Shown here: positions 3-5,513 of the stretch, in pieces
Position numbering within the stretch: position 1 is the first letter of the stretch
Layout of the letters: each line of letters starts with the position of its first letter
IMG/VR virus record: IMGVR_UViG_2585427764_000006
DNA from: a virus
Taxonomy: Duplodnaviria; Heunggongvirae; Uroviricota; Caudoviricetes
Direction: 5' to 3' (one strand)
DNA length: 5,513 bases
Program-made: the position numbers and the translations under genes
Notes under the pieces: generated by a model
Database searches by the model: none
Told to the model about the DNA's origin: nothing
What the model saw: the letters and a program-made list of their open reading frames with translations, nothing else

Positions 3-320
3 GCAAAAGCGTTCGCATACCTGCTGAAACAGTGGGATGCACTGAACGTGTACTGCAGTAATGGCTGGGTGGAAATCGACAACAACATCGCAGAGAACGC
101 CTTACGGGGAGTGGCCGTAGGCCGGAAAAACTGGATGTTCGCGGGTTCCGACAGCGGTGGTGAACATGCGGCGGTGTTGTACTCGCTGATCGGCACATGC
201 CGTCTGAACAATGTGGAGCCAGAAAAGTGGCTGCGTTACGTCATTGAACATATCCAGGACTGGCCGGCAAACCGGGTACGCGATCTGTTGCCCTGGAAAG
301 TTGATCTGAGCTCTCAGTAA
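3..320 (+). CDS. IS66-family transposase, C-terminal fragment (5' end outside window)
   Basis: The frame is open from position 3 (AKAFAYLLKQWDALNVYCSNGWVEIDNNIAENALRGVAVGRKNWMFAGSDSGGEHAAVLYSLIGTCRLNNVEPEKWLRYV...). The EIDNN-AE-ALR...GRKNW-FAGS motif block is, from memory, characteristic of the C-terminus of IS66-family DDE transposases. The GTG at 48 in the ORF track is not the true start. Confidence 0.85.
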   Translation, partial: AKAFAYLLKQWDALNVYCSNGWVEIDNNIAENALRGVAVGRKNWMFAGSDSGGEHAAVLYSLIGTCRLNNVEPEKWLRYVIEHIQDWPANRVRDLLPWKVDLSSQ

Positions 321-321
321 A

Positions 322-350
322 TATCAATACGGTTCTGACGAGTCGCTTAC
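322..350 (-). repeat. Candidate IS66 terminal inverted repeat (right end)
   Basis: The minus strand reads 5'-GTAAGCGACTCGTCAGAACCGTATTGATAT from position 350. The exact IR length cannot be fixed without the left end. Confidence 0.5.
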
Positions 351-351
351 C

Positions 352-1479
352 TTCAGCATCCGGACGTTCGCCAATTTTCGCCTCCCACGTCTCACCGAGC
401 GTGGTGTTTACGAAGGTTTTACGTTTTCCCGTATCCCCTTTCGTTTTCATCCAGTCTTTGACAATCTGCACCCAGGTGGTGAACGGGCTGTACACCGTCC
501 AGATGTGAAAGGTCACGCTGTCCGGCGGCTCAATCTCTTCACCGGATGACGAAAACCAGAGAATGCCATCACGGGTCCAGATCCCGGTCTTTTCGCAGAT
601 ATAACGGGCATCAGTGAAGTCCAGCTCCTGCTGGCGGATGACGCAGGCATTATGCTCGCAGAGATAAAACACGCTGGAGGGGTCATCCGGCGTCCATTTG
701 AGGCCAAACGGCGTCTCTTTGTCGCCAAATTTAAGATACTGCTCCTCCCCGCAGTGCGGGCAGGCAACATGAAAACGCATAAAATGCGGGGATTCACTGG
801 CTGCACGCTCAATCTGGCAGGTGCCTCTCACTTTGGGCGTGGAGCCACGGATGGACTTTGGCCAGACCGAGCCTTCAATACGTTTGTCGCCAAGGAACGT
901 CGGAGAGCCTTCCTGTTCAATATCCTCATCAAAGGCAGCAAGTTCATCATAACCCGCCACATCCACCGACTTTTCACGGTAGTTTTTTGCCGCTTTACCG
1001 CCCAGGCACCAGAAGCCACGACCATTGGAAAAACGCTTCATAGTGAGCGTGTTATCCCGGTGCTTTTTGCCATACCACGGAGCCAGCGCCAGCAGCGACG
1101 GAATATCGCGGATGGTCGGCTCAACGTGGGTTTTCATAAAGTTCTCGGCATCACCATCCGTCGGCAACCAGATAAGGGTGTTGCGCTGCTTATGCTCTAT
1201 GAAGTAGGCATAAACACCCAGCAGCATTTTGGAATAACCAACACGGGCAGACTTCACCACATTCACCTCGCGGACGTAGTCACTGCCCATCGCATTCATG
1301 ATGGCCCGCTGAAAGGGCAGTGTTTCCCAGCGCCCTTCCTGGTATGCGGATTCTTTCGGGAGATAGTAATTGGCATCCGCCCATTCAACGGCGGTCTGTG
1401 GCTCCGGCCGGAACAGTGAGCGAAGCCCGGCGCGGACAAAATGCCGCAGCCTGTTAACCTGACTGTTCGATATATTCAC
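352..1479 (-). pseudogene. A: Terminase large subunit (lambda gpA-like), N-terminal 376 codons, interrupted by the IS66 insertion
   Basis: The translation MNISNSQVNRLRHFVRAGLRSLFRPEPQTAVEWADANYYLPKES...TLGETWEAKIGERPDAE matches lambda gpA as I recall it. Full-length gpA is about 641 aa. After codon 376 the ORF runs into IS-derived sequence (GKRLVRTVLIFTESSDQ...) and stops at 241. The start overlaps the Nu1 3' end by 26 nt, as in lambda. Confidence 0.9.
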
Positions 1480-1999
1480 TCAGCAACCCCGGTATCAGTT
1501 CATCCAGCGCGGCTGCTTTGTTCATGGCTTTGATGATATCCCGTTTCAGGAAATCAACATGTCGGTTTTCCAGTTCCGGAAAACGCCGCTGCACCGACAG
1601 GGGGATCCCGTCGAGAATACTGGCAATTTCACCTGCGATCCGCGACAGCACGAAAGTACAGAATGCGGTTTCCACCACTTCAGCGGAGTCTCTGGCATTC
1701 TTCAGTTCCTGTGCGTCGGCCTGCGCACGCGTAAGTCGATGGCGTTCGTACTCAATAGTCCCTGGCTGGAGATCTGTCTCGCTGGCCTGCCGCAGTTCTT
1801 CAACTTCCCGGCGCAGCTTTTCGTTCTCAATTTCAGCATCCCTTTCGGCATACCATCTTATAACGGCGGCAGAGTCATAAAGCACCTCATTACCCTTGCC
1901 ACCGCCTCGCAGAACGGGCATTCCCTGTTCCTGCCAGTTCTGAATGGTACGGATACTCGCACCGAAAATGTCAGCCAGCTGCTTTTTGTTGACTTCCAT
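1454..1999 (-). CDS. nu1: Terminase small subunit (lambda gpNu1-like), apparently intact
   Basis: The 181-aa product MEVNKKQLADIFGASIRTIQNWQEQGMPVLRGGGKGNEVLYDSAAV... is near-identical to lambda Nu1 as recalled. It begins with the winged-helix DNA-binding region and lies immediately downstream of cosB. Confidence 0.95.
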   Translation of the reverse strand: MEVNKKQLADIFGASIRTIQNWQEQGMPVLRGGGKGNEVLYDSAAVIRWYAERDAEIENEKLRREVEELRQASETDLQPGTIEYERHRLTRAQADAQELKNARDSAEVVETAFCTFVLSRIAGEIASILDGIPLSVQRRFPELENRHVDFLKRDIIKAMNKAAALDELIPGLLSEYIEQSG

Positions 2000-2024
2000 T
2001 GTTCATTCCACGGACAAAAACAGA

Positions 2025-2079
2025 GAAAGGAAACGACAGAGGCCAAAAAGCCCGTTTTCAGCACCTGTCGTTTCCTTTC
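2025..2079 (-). promoter_or_regulatory. cosB terminase-binding R elements (R1/R2-like inverted pair)
   Basis: GAAAGGAAACGACAG at 2025-2039 and its exact reverse complement CTGTCGTTTCCTTTC at 2065-2079 form a perfect 15-bp inverted pair separated by 25 bp. They sit where lambda cosB R1/R2 sit relative to the Nu1 start. An R3-like copy (GAAGAACGGAAATG) is at about 2121-2138. Confidence 0.7.
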
Positions 2080-2176
2080 TTTTCAGGGGGTATTTTAAAT
2101 AAAAACATTAAGTTACAACGAAGAAGAACGGAAATGCCTTAAACCGGAAAATTTTCATAAATAGCGAAAACCCGCG

Positions 2177-2188
2177 AGGTCGCCGCCC
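2177..2188 (-). other. cosN (12-nt cohesive-end segment of the cos site)
   Basis: The plus strand reads AGGTCGCCGCCC, the reverse complement of the lambda cohesive end GGGCGGCGACCT. The flanks also match the lambda ends as recalled (CGCGGGTTTTCGCTATTTATGAAAATTTTCCGG on one side, CCGACAGGTTACG on the other). Confidence 0.85.
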
Positions 2189-2220
2189 CGTAACCTGTCG
2201 GATCGCCGGAAAGGACCCGC
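2189..2220 (-). promoter_or_regulatory. cosQ-containing region (packaging termination element) adjacent to cosN
   Basis: CGTAACCTGTCGGATCGCCGGAAAGGACCCGC is the reverse complement of the sequence that directly precedes cosN at the lambda right end, with apparently one substitution relative to my recollection of lambda. Confidence 0.5.
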
Positions 2221-2224
2221 AAAA

Positions 2225-2239
2225 TGATAATAATTATCA
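2225..2239. promoter_or_regulatory. Fur-box-like 7-1-7 palindrome (candidate iron-responsive operator)
   Basis: TGATAATAATTATCA is a perfect inverted repeat, TGATAAT-n-ATTATCA, matching the core Fur box motif. It lies about 150 bp upstream of the DUF3950 start codon on the plus strand. Confidence 0.4.
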
Positions 2240-2387
2240 TCTGCATGTCACAACGTGCATCTACGCCATCAAACCACGTCAAATAATCAATTATGACGCA
2301 GGTATCATATTAATTGATCTGCATCAACTTAACGTAAAAACAACTTCAGACAATACAAATCAGCGACACTGAATACGGGACAACCTC

Positions 2388-2621
2388 ATGTCAACGAAGA
2401 ACAGAACCCGCAGAACAACAACCCGCAACATCCGCTTTCCTAACCAAATGATTGAACAAATTAACATCGCTCTTGATCAAAAAGGGTCCGGGAATTTCTC
2501 AGCCTGGGTCATTGAAGCCTGCCGCCGGAGACTGTGCTCAGAAAAAAGAGTTTCTCCTGAAGCAAACAAAGAAAAGAGTGACATTACTGAATTGCTCAGA
2601 AAACAGATCAGACCAGATTGA
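2388..2621 (+). CDS. Small basic protein, DUF3950 family (YnfO/YlcI-like prophage protein)
   Basis: The 77-aa ORF MSTKNRTRRTTTRNIRFPNQMIEQINIALDQKGSGNFSAWVIEACRRRL... resembles the small proteins encoded next to noh/Nu1 in E. coli cryptic prophages. Its orientation is opposite to the late genes and the local sequence is AT-rich. Confidence 0.8.
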   Translation: MSTKNRTRRTTTRNIRFPNQMIEQINIALDQKGSGNFSAWVIEACRRRLCSEKRVSPEANKEKSDITELLRKQIRPD

Positions 2622-2677
2622 AGCAATTTAGATAATCGTGCAGACTACACCCCTCATATCACATGGAAGGTACTACA

Positions 2678-3088
2678 ATGGCTCAGGTTGCCATTTTTAA
2701 ACAAATATTCAATAAAGTGCGAAATAATTTAAACTATCACTGGTTTTATTCTGAACTAAAACGTCACAATGTCTCACATTACATTTACTATTTAGCCACA
2801 GAGAATATTCATCTTGTTCTTGAAAACGATAATACGGTTTTAATAAAAGGACAGGGTAAGGTTGTAAATGTAAGATTTTCAAAAAATAAATGCCTTATAG
2901 AAGCCACCTTAAAAGGATTCAAATCAGGAGAGTTATCATTTTACGAATACAGGAAAAATCTTGCTACAGCAGGGGTTTTCAGATGGATTACAAATATCCA
3001 CGAAAACAAAAGGTATTACTATACCTTTGATAATTCATTACTCTTTACTGAGAACATTCAGAACACTACACAAATATTTCCGCACTAA
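2678..3088 (+). CDS. DUF1398 family protein (YbcV/YdfO-like prophage protein)
   Basis: The ORF track gives 2663-3088, but the second ATG at 2678 is preceded by GGAAGG with about 6 nt spacing, so [14 protein letters not shown]... is the likelier start. The C-terminal block [38 protein letters not shown] is characteristic of this family as I recall it. GC content is low, about 25-30% by eye. Confidence 0.8.
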
Positions 3089-3344
3089 ATCATAACGTCC
3101 GGTTTCTTCCGTGCCAGAACCGGACTCGCTGGCATGATGAAATATGTGTACCCGGTAACCCCGGTGTGCATCGTTTTTGATTATTCCCACACACTCGCGC
3201 AGAAGGAGTTCCCCGTCGGGCTACGGTCTCTGTTAATACGGGAATACGGCGACGATACAGCGCATGATGTGTCAGGCTTGAATACCTTTATCCTTTAAAA
3301 GGGATATCAGTTAAGTTATCCCGTGTAGGGTATAAGCCATTATC

Positions 3345-3373
3345 AAAGCCACTCTGTAGGAAGTGGCTTTTGT
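3345..3373 (+). terminator. Candidate intrinsic terminator for the plus-strand moron genes
   Basis: AAAGCCACT (3345-3353) pairs with AGTGGCTTT (3362-3370) around an 8-nt loop, followed by TTTTG. The GC core is only 6 bp, so this is weak to moderate. Confidence 0.3.
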
Positions 3374-3378
3374 AATGG

Positions 3379-3405
3379 CAATAAAAAGCCCCGCGAATGC
3401 GAGGC
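3379..3405 (-). terminator. Candidate rho-independent terminator downstream of the Rz/Rz1 lysis genes
   Basis: On the minus strand GCCTCGC-ATTC-GCGGGGC forms a 7-bp GC-rich stem (one G-U pair) followed directly by TTTTTAT. It sits about 175 bp downstream of the Rz stop. Confidence 0.45.
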
Positions 3406-3579
3406 TAAATCCTGGTATTTGTAATGACTGGCTCTTATCTCAACGCAGCCCCTTACCGCGCGCAAAATGCTCAATATCAAGCATCAGCAATGAGATGTTT
3501 AATCTGGATTCACTCCAGAAGTGAGCACCACCCTGTCTACAGAGCCAGATGTGAAGGATGATGAGTAAAATTATCGCTA

Positions 3580-4047
3580 TCATCGAAGGCATTGCGTCCT
3601 GATGTATTCCTGAAGCGTTCTCAGTGCTGTTTGGTCGCGGATAATTCCGTCCCGGATACCGAGAACGTTTCGTCCAGCAACTGGAGAGAGTTCGACGGTG
3701 GCATCATTGCCCATGCCGGAGGCGCTGGAGGTTTCGGCTGAGGATGGCACAGGGCATTTTCCTTTGACGAGCACCCGACCACCATTATCAAGCTTGCGCC
3801 GAAGAGCATCATTTTCAGCTTTCGCATCAGCTAACTCCTTCGTGTATTTATCATCGAGTGCATCAGCATCACGCTGGCGCTGCTGCATGTCAGTAATGGT
3901 GGCGTTCGCCTTCTCCAGTTCACTGGCCTTGTTATCGCGCTGTTCTTTGTAGGCGATTGCATTATCACGGTAATGATTAACAGCCCATGACAGGCAGACG
4001 ATGATGCAGATAACCAGAGCGGAGATAATCGCGGTTACCCTGCTCAT
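3580..4047 (-). CDS. Rz: Rz i-spanin (inner-membrane spanin subunit)
   Basis: [31 protein letters not shown]... matches the lambda Rz N-terminus with its single N-terminal transmembrane helix and coiled-coil region. The probable start is the ATG at 4047-4045, which overlaps the R stop as ATGA; the ORF track starts 4 codons earlier. The C-terminal third diverges from lambda Rz. Confidence 0.9.
3621..3827 (-). CDS. Rz1: Rz1 o-spanin (outer-membrane lipoprotein), embedded in the +1 frame of Rz
   Basis: [21 protein letters not shown]... has a lipobox (VVGC) followed by a proline-rich segment ([11 protein letters not shown]), and lies wholly inside Rz in another frame, the classic embedded-spanin architecture. 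Confidence 0.8.
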
Positions 4048-4541
4048 TGTTGCCCCCACAAACAGACCTCACGCTCAATCTCACGACGAGTCATCAGGCC
4101 TTTCCATTGCTTACCGCCAGCGTATGCCCAGCGACGTAGCTGGTCACATGCGCCCTTGATATCGCCCTGGTTTATTTTGCGAAGAAGAGTAGATGTTCTG
4201 AAATTGCCTGCGCCCACGTTATAGACGAACGAGTAAAGAGCGCCGCGCGTTGTTTCCGGTATATCGACTTTGATGTACGGGTTAATTTGTCTGGCTACCG
4301 TGGCAAGGTCTTTATTCAGGAGGGCTTTGCATTCTGCTTCGGTATACGTTTTACCGGGAATGATGTCTTTTCCTGTATGCCCGTGACATACAGTCCATAC
4401 GCCAACGATATCTTTGTATGGTATGTAGCTGACACCTTCCAGACCATCGTTACCACTTGGGCCAGTGATTAACACTGATGCTATAGCAATTGCTCCGCCA
4501 CCAATAGCAGCAGCAACGGCTTTTCGTAATGATGGAGGCAT
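4044..4541 (-). CDS. R: SAR endolysin (phage 21 R-type lysozyme)
   Basis: The 165-aa product has an N-terminal Gly/Ala-rich weakly hydrophobic signal-anchor-release domain ([18 protein letters not shown]), then a T4-lysozyme-like catalytic triad at E35, D44 and T50. It is near-identical to phage 21 R as recalled. The start overlaps the S stop (TAATG). Confidence 0.93.
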
Positions 4542-4756
4542 TATTCACCTCTCGCAGCCTTGCGCTTATCTTCTTTAATCTTGAAATAAAGGTTTGTCAG
4601 GTACGTCAGCAGGCCAAATACCAAGCTACCCAGCACACCTATTGCTGCCCACTGTGAGGGCGTGACTTTATCGAGCAACTGTAAAAACCAGTAGCCAGCA
4701 CTGCCTGCGGAGGTGCCGTAGGCAATGCCCGTTGTTAACTTATCCATGGATTTCAT
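4541..4756 (-). CDS. S: Pinholin (phage 21 S-type), dual-start class II holin
   Basis: The 71-aa product [26 protein letters not shown]... has the dual-start motif Met1-Lys-Ser-Met4 (antiholin and holin forms), two transmembrane segments and a charged C-terminus. A strong Shine-Dalgarno GGAGGTGAGGC lies immediately upstream. Confidence 0.93.
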
Positions 4757-4850
4757 AGCCTCACCTCCGCAAATAACGGATGGTGTACACGGTTCGGAAC
4801 GAAGAGGAAAGGTATAGAAGTTACATTAGCGTAAGGCTTGAACATCTATT

Positions 4851-4882
4851 CAAAAAGAAAAACGCCGCGATTATTCTGGCGT
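4851..4882 (-). terminator. Candidate tR'-like intrinsic terminator upstream of S
   Basis: On the minus strand ACGCC-(11-nt loop)-GGCGT is followed by TTTTTCTTTTTG, about 105 nt upstream of the S start codon. The stem is short (5 bp), so this is tentative. The position resembles the lambda late-leader terminator that Q antiterminates. Confidence 0.3.
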
Positions 4883-5002
4883 AGCTGAAAGCATCATACA
4901 ATTATCAAATACGAAAATTACAAAATCATTAAAACGCATCACGTTACATCATGTCTTTTTCTAAAAAAAATCTTGATGAATATTGATGGTGCGTATTACC
5001 GT

Positions 5003-5092
5003 GAAGGAGATCGGTGAGTAACATCGATGGAGATCGGTTCGTGTCACTTTCACAGAACCGTTTTTAAATTACCTTCACTGATCTCCTTCGGT
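5003..5092. repeat. IS21-family terminal repeat cluster
   Basis: GGAGATCGGT occurs as direct copies at 5006-5015 and 5029-5038, the first as GAAGGAGATCGGT from 5003. An inverted copy (GATCTCCTTC, reverse complement of GAAGGAGATC) lies at 5081-5090, overlapping the last istB codons. Confidence 0.5.
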
Positions 5093-5512
5093 CAACGGAG
5101 ATTGTATTTTCCGCATTGATTCTCCTTGAAGTTCGATCTTGATACTGCCATGAACCAGTCGATCTAGGATGGCATCCGCATGTGTGGAGTCTCCGATCAT
5201 TTTGTACCAGTTTTCCACCGGCAACTGGCTCACTACGATGATTGAGCCTCGTTGGTACATCAGATCCACTATTTCCAGCAGGTCGCTACGCTGTTCTGAT
5301 GAGAGAGGTTCCAGCCCCCAGTCATCCAGAAGCAGCAGATCGCTATTATTCAGCCTGGTCAAAAGTTTGCTGTATCTTCCATCAGCATGCCCCTGATAGC
5401 ACTGTTCCATCAGCGCTTTAAGGCGATAATAGTAGACCTTGTATCCCTGTCGGCAGGCATTATGACCAAGTGCACATGCCAGGAACGTTTTACCGCTGCC
5501 GGTGGCCCCGGT
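5075..5512 (-). CDS. istB: IS21-family IstB ATP-binding helper protein, C-terminal portion (5' end outside window)
   Basis: The frame is open to the window edge: TGATGSGKTFLACALGHNACRQGYKVYYYRLKALMEQCYQ... contains a Walker A P-loop (GATGSGKT), then a Walker B-like LLLLDDWG. The ORF track shows only the part from the internal Met at 5410. Confidence 0.88.
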   Translation of the reverse strand, partial: TGATGSGKTFLACALGHNACRQGYKVYYYRLKALMEQCYQGHADGRYSKLLTRLNNSDLLLLDDWGLEPLSSEQRSDLLEIVDLMYQRGSIIVVSQLPVENWYKMIGDSTHADAILDRLVHGSIKIELQGESMRKIQSPLTEGDQ

Positions 5513-5513
5513 C

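Follow-up and report, generated by a model that had tools for sequence, protein, structure and literature searches.

The DNA analysed here, called the window throughout, is a stretch of 5,513 bp that corresponds to the whole of contig JORX01000098.1 (assembly GCA_000713415.1), both ends of which lie inside repeated insertion sequences. The ORF list, the gene calls and the Pfam matches place it in the late region of a lambda-like E. coli prophage, on the minus strand. The lysis cassette begins with S, a gene for an S21-type class II holin/antiholin of 71 aa (4541..4756, minus strand; Pfam PF04971, E = 2e-35), which is essD-like and is annotated as essD in relatives. S has dual starts, Met1 (4756) and Met4 (4747), and its product begins MKSMDK, like the annotated S21-71/S21-68 of phage 21 (OL657228). 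The same strand carries intact genes for an rrrD-like lysozyme endolysin (R, 4044..4541, 165 aa; PF00959), the N-terminal region of which resembles the SAR endolysin of phage 21, and for an Rz i-spanin (3580..4047, 155 aa; PF03245) with an embedded Rz1-like lipoprotein ORF. This ORF (3621-3827, minus strand) lies in the +1 frame within Rz and codes for 68 aa from its first ATG; it was left uncalled by the contig's gene caller and contains a motif, VVGC, that resembles a lipobox.

Just before S, folding predicts a hairpin over the ribosome-binding site (4762..4785, minus strand; CACC-A-UCCGU-UAUUU-GCGGA-GGUG), in which the Shine-Dalgarno sequence of S is paired (GAGG, 4767-4764; -14.9 kcal/mol, z = -2.1 to -2.9). 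This hairpin presumably serves the S21-type dual start as a translational control element. S21-type holins are preceded by at least nine unrelated upstream sequences, as seen in a comparison of the 300 nt ahead of S (loci L086-L164); between classes, homology stops about 11-30 nt short of the start codon. When the leaders were folded class by class, a hairpin sequestering the Shine-Dalgarno sequence was predicted in 9 of 9 unrelated S21-type leader classes, each time with a different 5' arm.

The rest of the late region comprises Nu1 and the terminase large subunit gene A, both on the minus strand, and two small genes, DUF1398 and DUF3950, on the strand opposite to the lysis genes. The terminase gene is cut at 350/351 by an IS66-family element that occupies positions 1-350 on the plus strand, with a transposase C-terminus at 48-320. 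Because A is truncated in this way, the source prophage is defective for packaging and cannot yield virions. The junction creates a 412-aa terminase A/IS66 fusion ORF (241-1479, minus strand), which is present only in assemblies GCA_000713415.1 and GCA_000713265.1. Upstream of Nu1, at 2177-2188 (minus strand), lies the sequence GGGCGGCGACCT, which we take to be the 12-nt cohesive-end sequence of lambda cosN; the packaging site would then be of the lambda type.

Over the non-IS part of the window (351-4983), there is 100% identity to DNA of E. coli 101EVA, within a prophage that appears to be complete: it has cro, cII, O, P and the nin genes, then Q and the lysis genes, and finally a full-length terminase with the head and tail genes. 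Of 5,426 complete E. coli genomes, 711 have at least 80% of this non-IS part, and uninterrupted relatives occur in about 710-810 E. coli genomes as well as in free phages. Strain Z0117EC0098 (locus L001) has a defective copy of the same prophage beside ybhC, a neighbourhood that we take to be the lambda attachment region. Two changes mark this copy (L001 3742-4970 and 8090-10121): an extra IS2 between the lipocalin gene and ybgA, and an inversion by which a truncated Rz has become joined to a terminase/Nu1 segment in inverted orientation. Different strains commonly show independent decay of this prophage.

ISEc12 and the interrupted AraC-family gene

Upstream of S, the window ends in the right-hand 524 nt of ISEc12, an element of the IS21 family (4990..5513, minus strand; identified by BLAST to ISEc12 istB), with one mismatch to a reference copy over the 524 nt. 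The segment contains the 3' part of istB (stop codon 5077-5075), the right terminal inverted repeat and repeated GATCTCC motifs; istB reads toward S and ends 85 nt from the terminus of the element. Complete reference copies carry both istA and istB and have a total length of 2,581 bp, with ends TGCGTATTTT... (left) and ...AATACGCA (right) and termini of the TG...CA form. The right terminus, ...GGTAATACGCA, was set at window position 4990 by the divergence of flanking DNA right after ACGCA in two reference copies and 38 distinct flanks; the ISEc12 copy of L006 was left out as a right-tip reference, its flank differing immediately after ACGCA. Positions 4989-4984 (CCATCA) belong to the target itself and are the same in the uninterrupted L001 locus. 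Given a terminus at 4990, the interval between S and ISEc12 spans 4757-4989, or 233 bp. This agrees with the distance of about 230 bp given in a preliminary description of this DNA, which had placed the end of the element at 4984, six bases nearer to S than it lies.

At its ISEc12 end, the interval contains the 3' remnant of an AraC-family (HTH_18) gene (4944..4989, minus strand), consisting of 14 codons (HQYSSRFFLEKDMM) and a TAA stop (4946-4944). The remnant is 100% identical to the end of the WP_001146308.1 genes in L001 and L008; the full gene codes for 243 aa (L008 7309-8040), and the other 229 codons lie beyond ISEc12. Its product matches Pfam HTH_18/HTH_AraC and is closest to YdeO (127 bits vs. 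a cut-off of 348), GadX and HilD, all below the equivalog cut-offs. The gene has a GC content of 31.8%, vs. 48-54% for Q, S, R, Rz and terminase, and the 350-bp gap before it holds two promoter-like sites with 10/12 matches (L001 6004-6031 and 6099-6128), the regional total of such sites being near chance. Morons are promoter-gene-terminator units inserted in the late regions of lambdoid prophages, a concept of Hendrix and colleagues. The AraC-family gene resembles them in its deviant GC content, its upstream promoter-like sites, its putative downstream terminator and its place between Q and S, and the simplest reading is that it would be a moron with its own terminator.

To reach the other side of the element, we predicted the fusion proteins that would result from reading the interrupted AraC-family gene into the left end of ISEc12, with duplications of 2-10 bp (nine candidates). 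Only one of the nine, the 5-bp version of 247 aa, exists in the public protein collection (WP_032217159.1; KEM77794.1, KEM84178.1 and KEN18568.1), where it is listed on three contigs. The far-side contig, JORP01000025.1 (L010, 16.4 kb), belongs to a sister assembly, GCA_000713265.1, which also has a contig that matches 5,260 nt of the window with 100% identity. From the three GenBank accessions, we infer that the far-side contig is present in the window's own assembly, GCA_000713415.1, as well. Used in this way for annotation, a predicted junction fusion protein, once looked up, links an IS-bounded contig to its partner contig.

The far-side contig ends ...CCTCCCCATC followed by the left end of ISEc12, TGCGTATTTT; the window reads ACGCA followed by CCATCAATATTC, and the uninterrupted target reads CCTCCCCATCAATATTC. 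Together, the two flanks rebuild the intact AraC-family gene exactly, with a 5-bp duplication, CCATC, the S-proximal copy of which lies at 4985..4989 (minus strand); the left junction is taken from the sister assembly. The insertion point is 46 bp before the end of the gene. IS21 makes 5-bp repeats (PMC10122671), in agreement with the duplication seen here. ISEc12 is a simple IS21-family insertion in a contiguous target. The exact rebuilding of this target with a 5-bp duplication also argues for physical linkage of the two contigs across an IS that is present in many copies.

The exact ISEc12/prophage junction had no match in species-representative genomes and was absent from all complete E. 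coli genomes searched. A hit that matched 19 nt beyond the end of the IS (H1) was an unrelated copy of ISEc12 in a fimbrial island. We also rejected a preference of ISEc12 for CCATC targets, an idea that had arisen from two independent ISEc12 copies sharing the duplication and from a resemblance of the target to an internal IstA-site repeat: only 2 of the 38 distinct flanks start with CCATC, there is no consensus among them, and the coincidence stemmed from BLAST ranking.

The insertion exchanges the last 13 residues of the AraC-family protein for 17 IS-encoded ones (L010 10001-10744). Since the change begins immediately after the HTH_18 domain, the altered regulator may still be active.

Q and the native gene order

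In the E. coli chromosomes L001 and L008 and in the free phages IdasGreatGrand (L002) and 1H12 (L003), the native order is rusA, ylcG, Q, a lipocalin gene on the opposite strand, ybgA, the AraC-family gene, 187 bp, and S. The far-side contig follows this order up to the insertion, reading sieB, N, a cI-like gene, cro, cII, O, P, ren, ninB, dam, ninE, ninX, rusA, ylcG, Q, lipocalin, ybgA and finally the interrupted AraC-family gene joined to the left end of ISEc12. Its immunity region (L010 731-2763) encodes a cI-like repressor of 210 aa, which includes an S24 peptidase domain, as well as a cro-like product of 71 aa and an N homologue of 107 aa. The first two have the look of their phage 434 counterparts, and N that of lambda N; this may be a natural imm434-like lambdoid prophage.

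Both Q and the 156 nt that follow it on the far-side contig are 100% identical to the apparently complete prophage. The gene is intact beyond ISEc12: it has been displaced, not lost. The preliminary description had raised the question of whether Q would be found on the far side of the IS, and the sister-assembly contig answers it in the affirmative, Q being both present and intact. The accompanying suggestion, that Q and the late promoter were displaced by the IS21-family insertion, is only partly right. Q does lie beyond ISEc12, together with the candidate late promoter, and 5,688 nt now separate its stop codon from the start of S, but it was never adjacent to S in the native arrangement, where this distance is already 3,102 nt (L008).

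The Q protein encoded here (125 aa, PF06530) matches the structures of Q21 but is distant from it (37 bits; 162 aa in the PDB chains). The 156-nt post-Q segment is conserved in 12 haplotypes (L001 2790-2920; L010 7818-7973). About 100 nt after Q there is a predicted terminator with a 9-bp stem and T7 (-14.9 kcal/mol, z = -3.35), our candidate for the equivalent of tR' in this lineage. A sequence that starts 13 nt after the Q stop codon, TTGCTG-17-TAACAT, would by its position be pR', although it matches the consensus poorly (7/12). The score of the post-Q region against phage 21 pR' was at chance level (17 vs. 15.5 +/- 2.3). Repeats of the form ATTGTC/ATTAGTC are seen in the segment where phage 21 has its QBE, with the strong terminator about 50-80 nt downstream. 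The promoter and Q-binding element of this QuuD-like subtype of Q appear not to have been characterised before.

The hairpin upstream of S

A modest hairpin followed by a T-tract had been reported upstream of S on the minus strand, and we find it at 4882-4852. The stem is formed by ACGCC (4882-4878) and GGCGT (4866-4862), which enclose 11 nt and are followed by TTTTCTTTTT (4861-4852). The T-tract ends 96 nt before the start of S, and the stem begins 61 nt after the TAA codon of the co-oriented AraC-family gene. From folding and from the alignment with relatives, we list this feature (4852..4882, minus strand) as a putative degenerate intrinsic terminator of the AraC-family gene. Its predicted stability is low, with energies between -7.3 and -8.1 kcal/mol and z between -0.2 and -0.4 vs. 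shuffles, so that on energy alone the structure is at chance level. Set against the intrinsic-terminator criteria used (a GC-rich stem of at least 5 bp and a loop of 3-8 nt, then a U-tract), it has a 5-bp stem, 11 enclosed nucleotides and then UUUUCUUUUU, and the terminator scan did not call it on account of the 11-nt loop.

In evolutionary terms, the hairpin is nonetheless real. One extra T is present in the hairpin in 50 of 74 related IMG/VR contigs and in both free phages (L002 and L003), and the T-containing form pairs over 7 bp (ACGCCAG/CTGGCGT) around a loop of 8 nt, with the T-tract behind it (-12.1 kcal/mol, z = -2.0). The T is missing from the other 24 contigs, all of one haplotype, which is also seen, with 100% identity, in several E. 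coli genomes. By this alignment, the hairpin of the window is best read as a 1-nt-deletion derivative of an ancestor with a 7-bp stem. We infer that it served as the AraC-family gene's own terminator and was weakened by the loss of one nucleotide; it may no longer terminate.

The latter idea can be taken further, to a T-less hairpin that is a non-functional relic, the interval being an untranslated spacer plus the ribosome-site hairpin of S. This is possible, if clearly the less probable course. The folding energy (z about -0.3), the 5-bp stem around 11 nt, the failure of the scan to detect it and the restriction of the T-less form to one derived haplotype all point in this direction. However, partial termination can still occur at a GC-rich stem of 5 bp with a T-rich tract of 10 nt after it, and the haplotype is common (24/74 contigs and several 100%-identical E. 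coli genomes), and so at least tolerated.

The preliminary description had called the hairpin tR'-like, on the premise that Q, pR', qut and tR' directly precede S. This premise is inapplicable here, the uninterrupted lineage having Q 3,102 nt upstream with three accessory genes in between. The interval sits about 2.9-3.1 kb downstream of Q in intact relatives, after the lipocalin gene, ybgA and the AraC-family gene. The label itself does not fit either: the hairpin is positioned about 60 nt past the AraC-family stop codon and has no similarity to the phage 21 module.

In phage 21 (OL657228.1), the annotated pR' -35/-10, QBE (ATTGAGCA/AATGAGCA), TSS, SDPE, terminator, two tRNAs and S21 all lie within 366 nt after Q. 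An alignment of the interval with the phage 21 pR'-qut-tR' region had been suggested as a check. Compared with pR'-QBE-SDPE-terminator of that phage, the interval showed no similarity to pR', QBE or the terminator. The sole local alignment covers about 24 nt at the ribosome-binding site of S, with a score of 28; this exceeds the shuffle mean (18 +/- 2.5) by about 4 sd but falls short of the best shuffle (31). The earlier impression that the remaining DNA lacks a convincing sigma-70 promoter was borne out by a scan of the interval, which gave 0 hits at threshold, a laxer scan giving 6 hits vs. 4.7 +/- 2.3 in shuffles, i.e. chance. The ORF list likewise confirms that no Q ORF is present in 4757-4989, and thus none between the hairpin and the IS. 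No known RNA family was found in an Rfam search of 4500-5100.

These data bear on the notion of the hairpin as a true tR', with a cryptic pR'/qut in 4883-4989 and the interval as a truncated late-promoter leader. A hairpin and T-tract do lie upstream of S on the correct strand, and pR'-tR' of phage 21 is just 325 nt before S. However, 4944-4989 codes for the AraC-family protein, promoter signals are at chance level and there is no likeness to phage 21 pR'/QBE/SDPE. Moreover, all intact relatives have Q at a distance of 3.1 kb, a strong terminator of its own adjoining it. We consider this notion barely credible. Judged by its gene content and that of its relatives, the interval is not a late-promoter leader and never held pR' or qut.

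The accessory-gene terminator remains our preferred reading of the hairpin. The late promoter of many lambdoid prophages lies kilobases away from the lysis genes, accessory genes occupying the gap, and a hairpin with a T-run just upstream of S is therefore expected to be an accessory-gene terminator rather than tR'. A hairpin and T-run are found 44-108 nt before S in at least 6 of the 9 unrelated leader classes, which fits an insulating role. A more speculative proposal, which we regard as rather doubtful, is that a terminator 40-110 nt ahead of S21-type holins is a selected insulator that shields the cassette from lysogenic and IS transcription, no matter which accessory gene, tRNA or IS comes to lie between Q and S, and lets only Q-modified polymerase pass, and that it has been weakened here by a 1-nt deletion, with a co-oriented IS reading toward it. 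If this were true, low Q-independent expression of holin and endolysin would be possible, leading to an autolysis-prone defective prophage.

Probable late transcription across the insertion

The interpretation that we favour, with a probability of roughly 75%, is that the interval is what is left between the IS and the cassette in a late operon that natively has three accessory genes between Q and S, and that the cassette probably still depends on Q. In the lysogen, the hairpin terminator would stop transcripts of the AraC-family gene, and now those of istAB too, before they reach the lethal lysis genes. Upon induction, RNA polymerase modified by Q would start beside Q and pass tR', the accessory genes, ISEc12 and the hairpin terminator to reach S, R and Rz. 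The insertion would shift Q and pR' 2.6 kb farther from S, and would probably leave the cassette unsilenced. In this scheme, terminator activity, the position of pR' and read-through by Q are presumptive, and the processivity of Q is an extrapolation from other systems, since this Q is only distantly related to Q21 (37 bits).

The opposite had been suggested previously, namely that ISEc12 cuts the cassette off from Q-dependent late transcription and leaves S, R and Rz intact but silent. ISEc12 does sit between Q and S, the remaining 233 bp have no independent promoter, and the 2.6 kb added include about 200 nt of untranslated RNA where Rho could hit an unmodified polymerase. However, Q proteins remain associated with the polymerase during elongation, keep late transcription uninterrupted, relieve polarity and allow terminators to be overridden (PMC12360218), so that Q-modified complexes would be resistant to such signals. 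No terminator-like site was found on the sense strand of ISEc12, where no intrinsic terminator is predicted, and Q and the post-Q module are intact. Furthermore, DLP12 of E. coli K-12 likewise has an IS5 between quuD and essD. An IS between Q and S is not in itself evidence for silencing; the suggestion does not follow from the insertion, and we consider it unlikely.

A third scenario would have ISEc12 itself drive the lysis genes, either by read-through of istAB or from a hybrid outward promoter, with low constitutive expression of S, R and Rz past the weakened terminator. The co-orientation of istB with S, its end being 85 nt from the terminus, and the weakening of the terminator are in keeping with this, as is the -35 box of the right terminal inverted repeat of IS21 (PMC10122671), for which TTCACG at 5005-5000 is a candidate. 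Nevertheless, the best hybrid promoter has 8/12 matches, a 15-nt spacer and a -10 of AATATT, which is chance level, and a lone IS21 element shows weak promoter activity (PMC10122671). The Shine-Dalgarno hairpin would limit translation, the hairpin terminator also stands in the way, and constitutive holin and endolysin expression would be selected against. This scenario is very unlikely, and more so than silencing.

Returning to the Q-dependent operon, the source strain probably keeps an inducible Q-dependent lysis module together with a C-terminally altered AraC-family regulator related to YdeO/GadX. Globally, the locus combines familiar elements in an ordinary way: S21 dual-start control, the simple insertion of an IS21-family element and, in the late operon of a lambdoid prophage, what is most simply read as a moron.

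Phage 21 shares with this prophage the S21 class II dual-start holin, a lysozyme endolysin and Rz/Rz1, as well as a Q of family PF06530, a hairpin sequestering the Shine-Dalgarno sequence just before S and a terminator soon after Q. The two differ in the DNA between Q and S: the 366 nt from the Q stop to the S start in phage 21 hold only pR'-tR' and the genes for tRNA-Asn/Thr, whereas the 3,102 nt here (5,688 nt with the IS) hold three accessory genes. The lambda tR'/6S RNA terminator is, like the hairpin described here, an intrinsic late-operon terminator through which polymerase modified by Q is expected to read. It lies directly downstream of pR', beside Q, whereas the present hairpin follows an accessory gene 3 kb downstream.

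A close parallel in gene order is the defective prophage DLP12 of E. coli K-12, which reads quuD, nmpC::IS5, essD, rrrD, rzpD. Both prophages have a Q of the Q21 family, an IS-interrupted accessory gene between Q and an S21-type holin gene, and nohD and a truncated terminase downstream; the RefSeq names here are essD, rrrD and nohD. They differ in the accessory genes (a porin vs. lipocalin, ybgA and the AraC-family gene), in the element (IS5 vs. ISEc12) and in location, the L001 copy of the present prophage lying beside ybhC.
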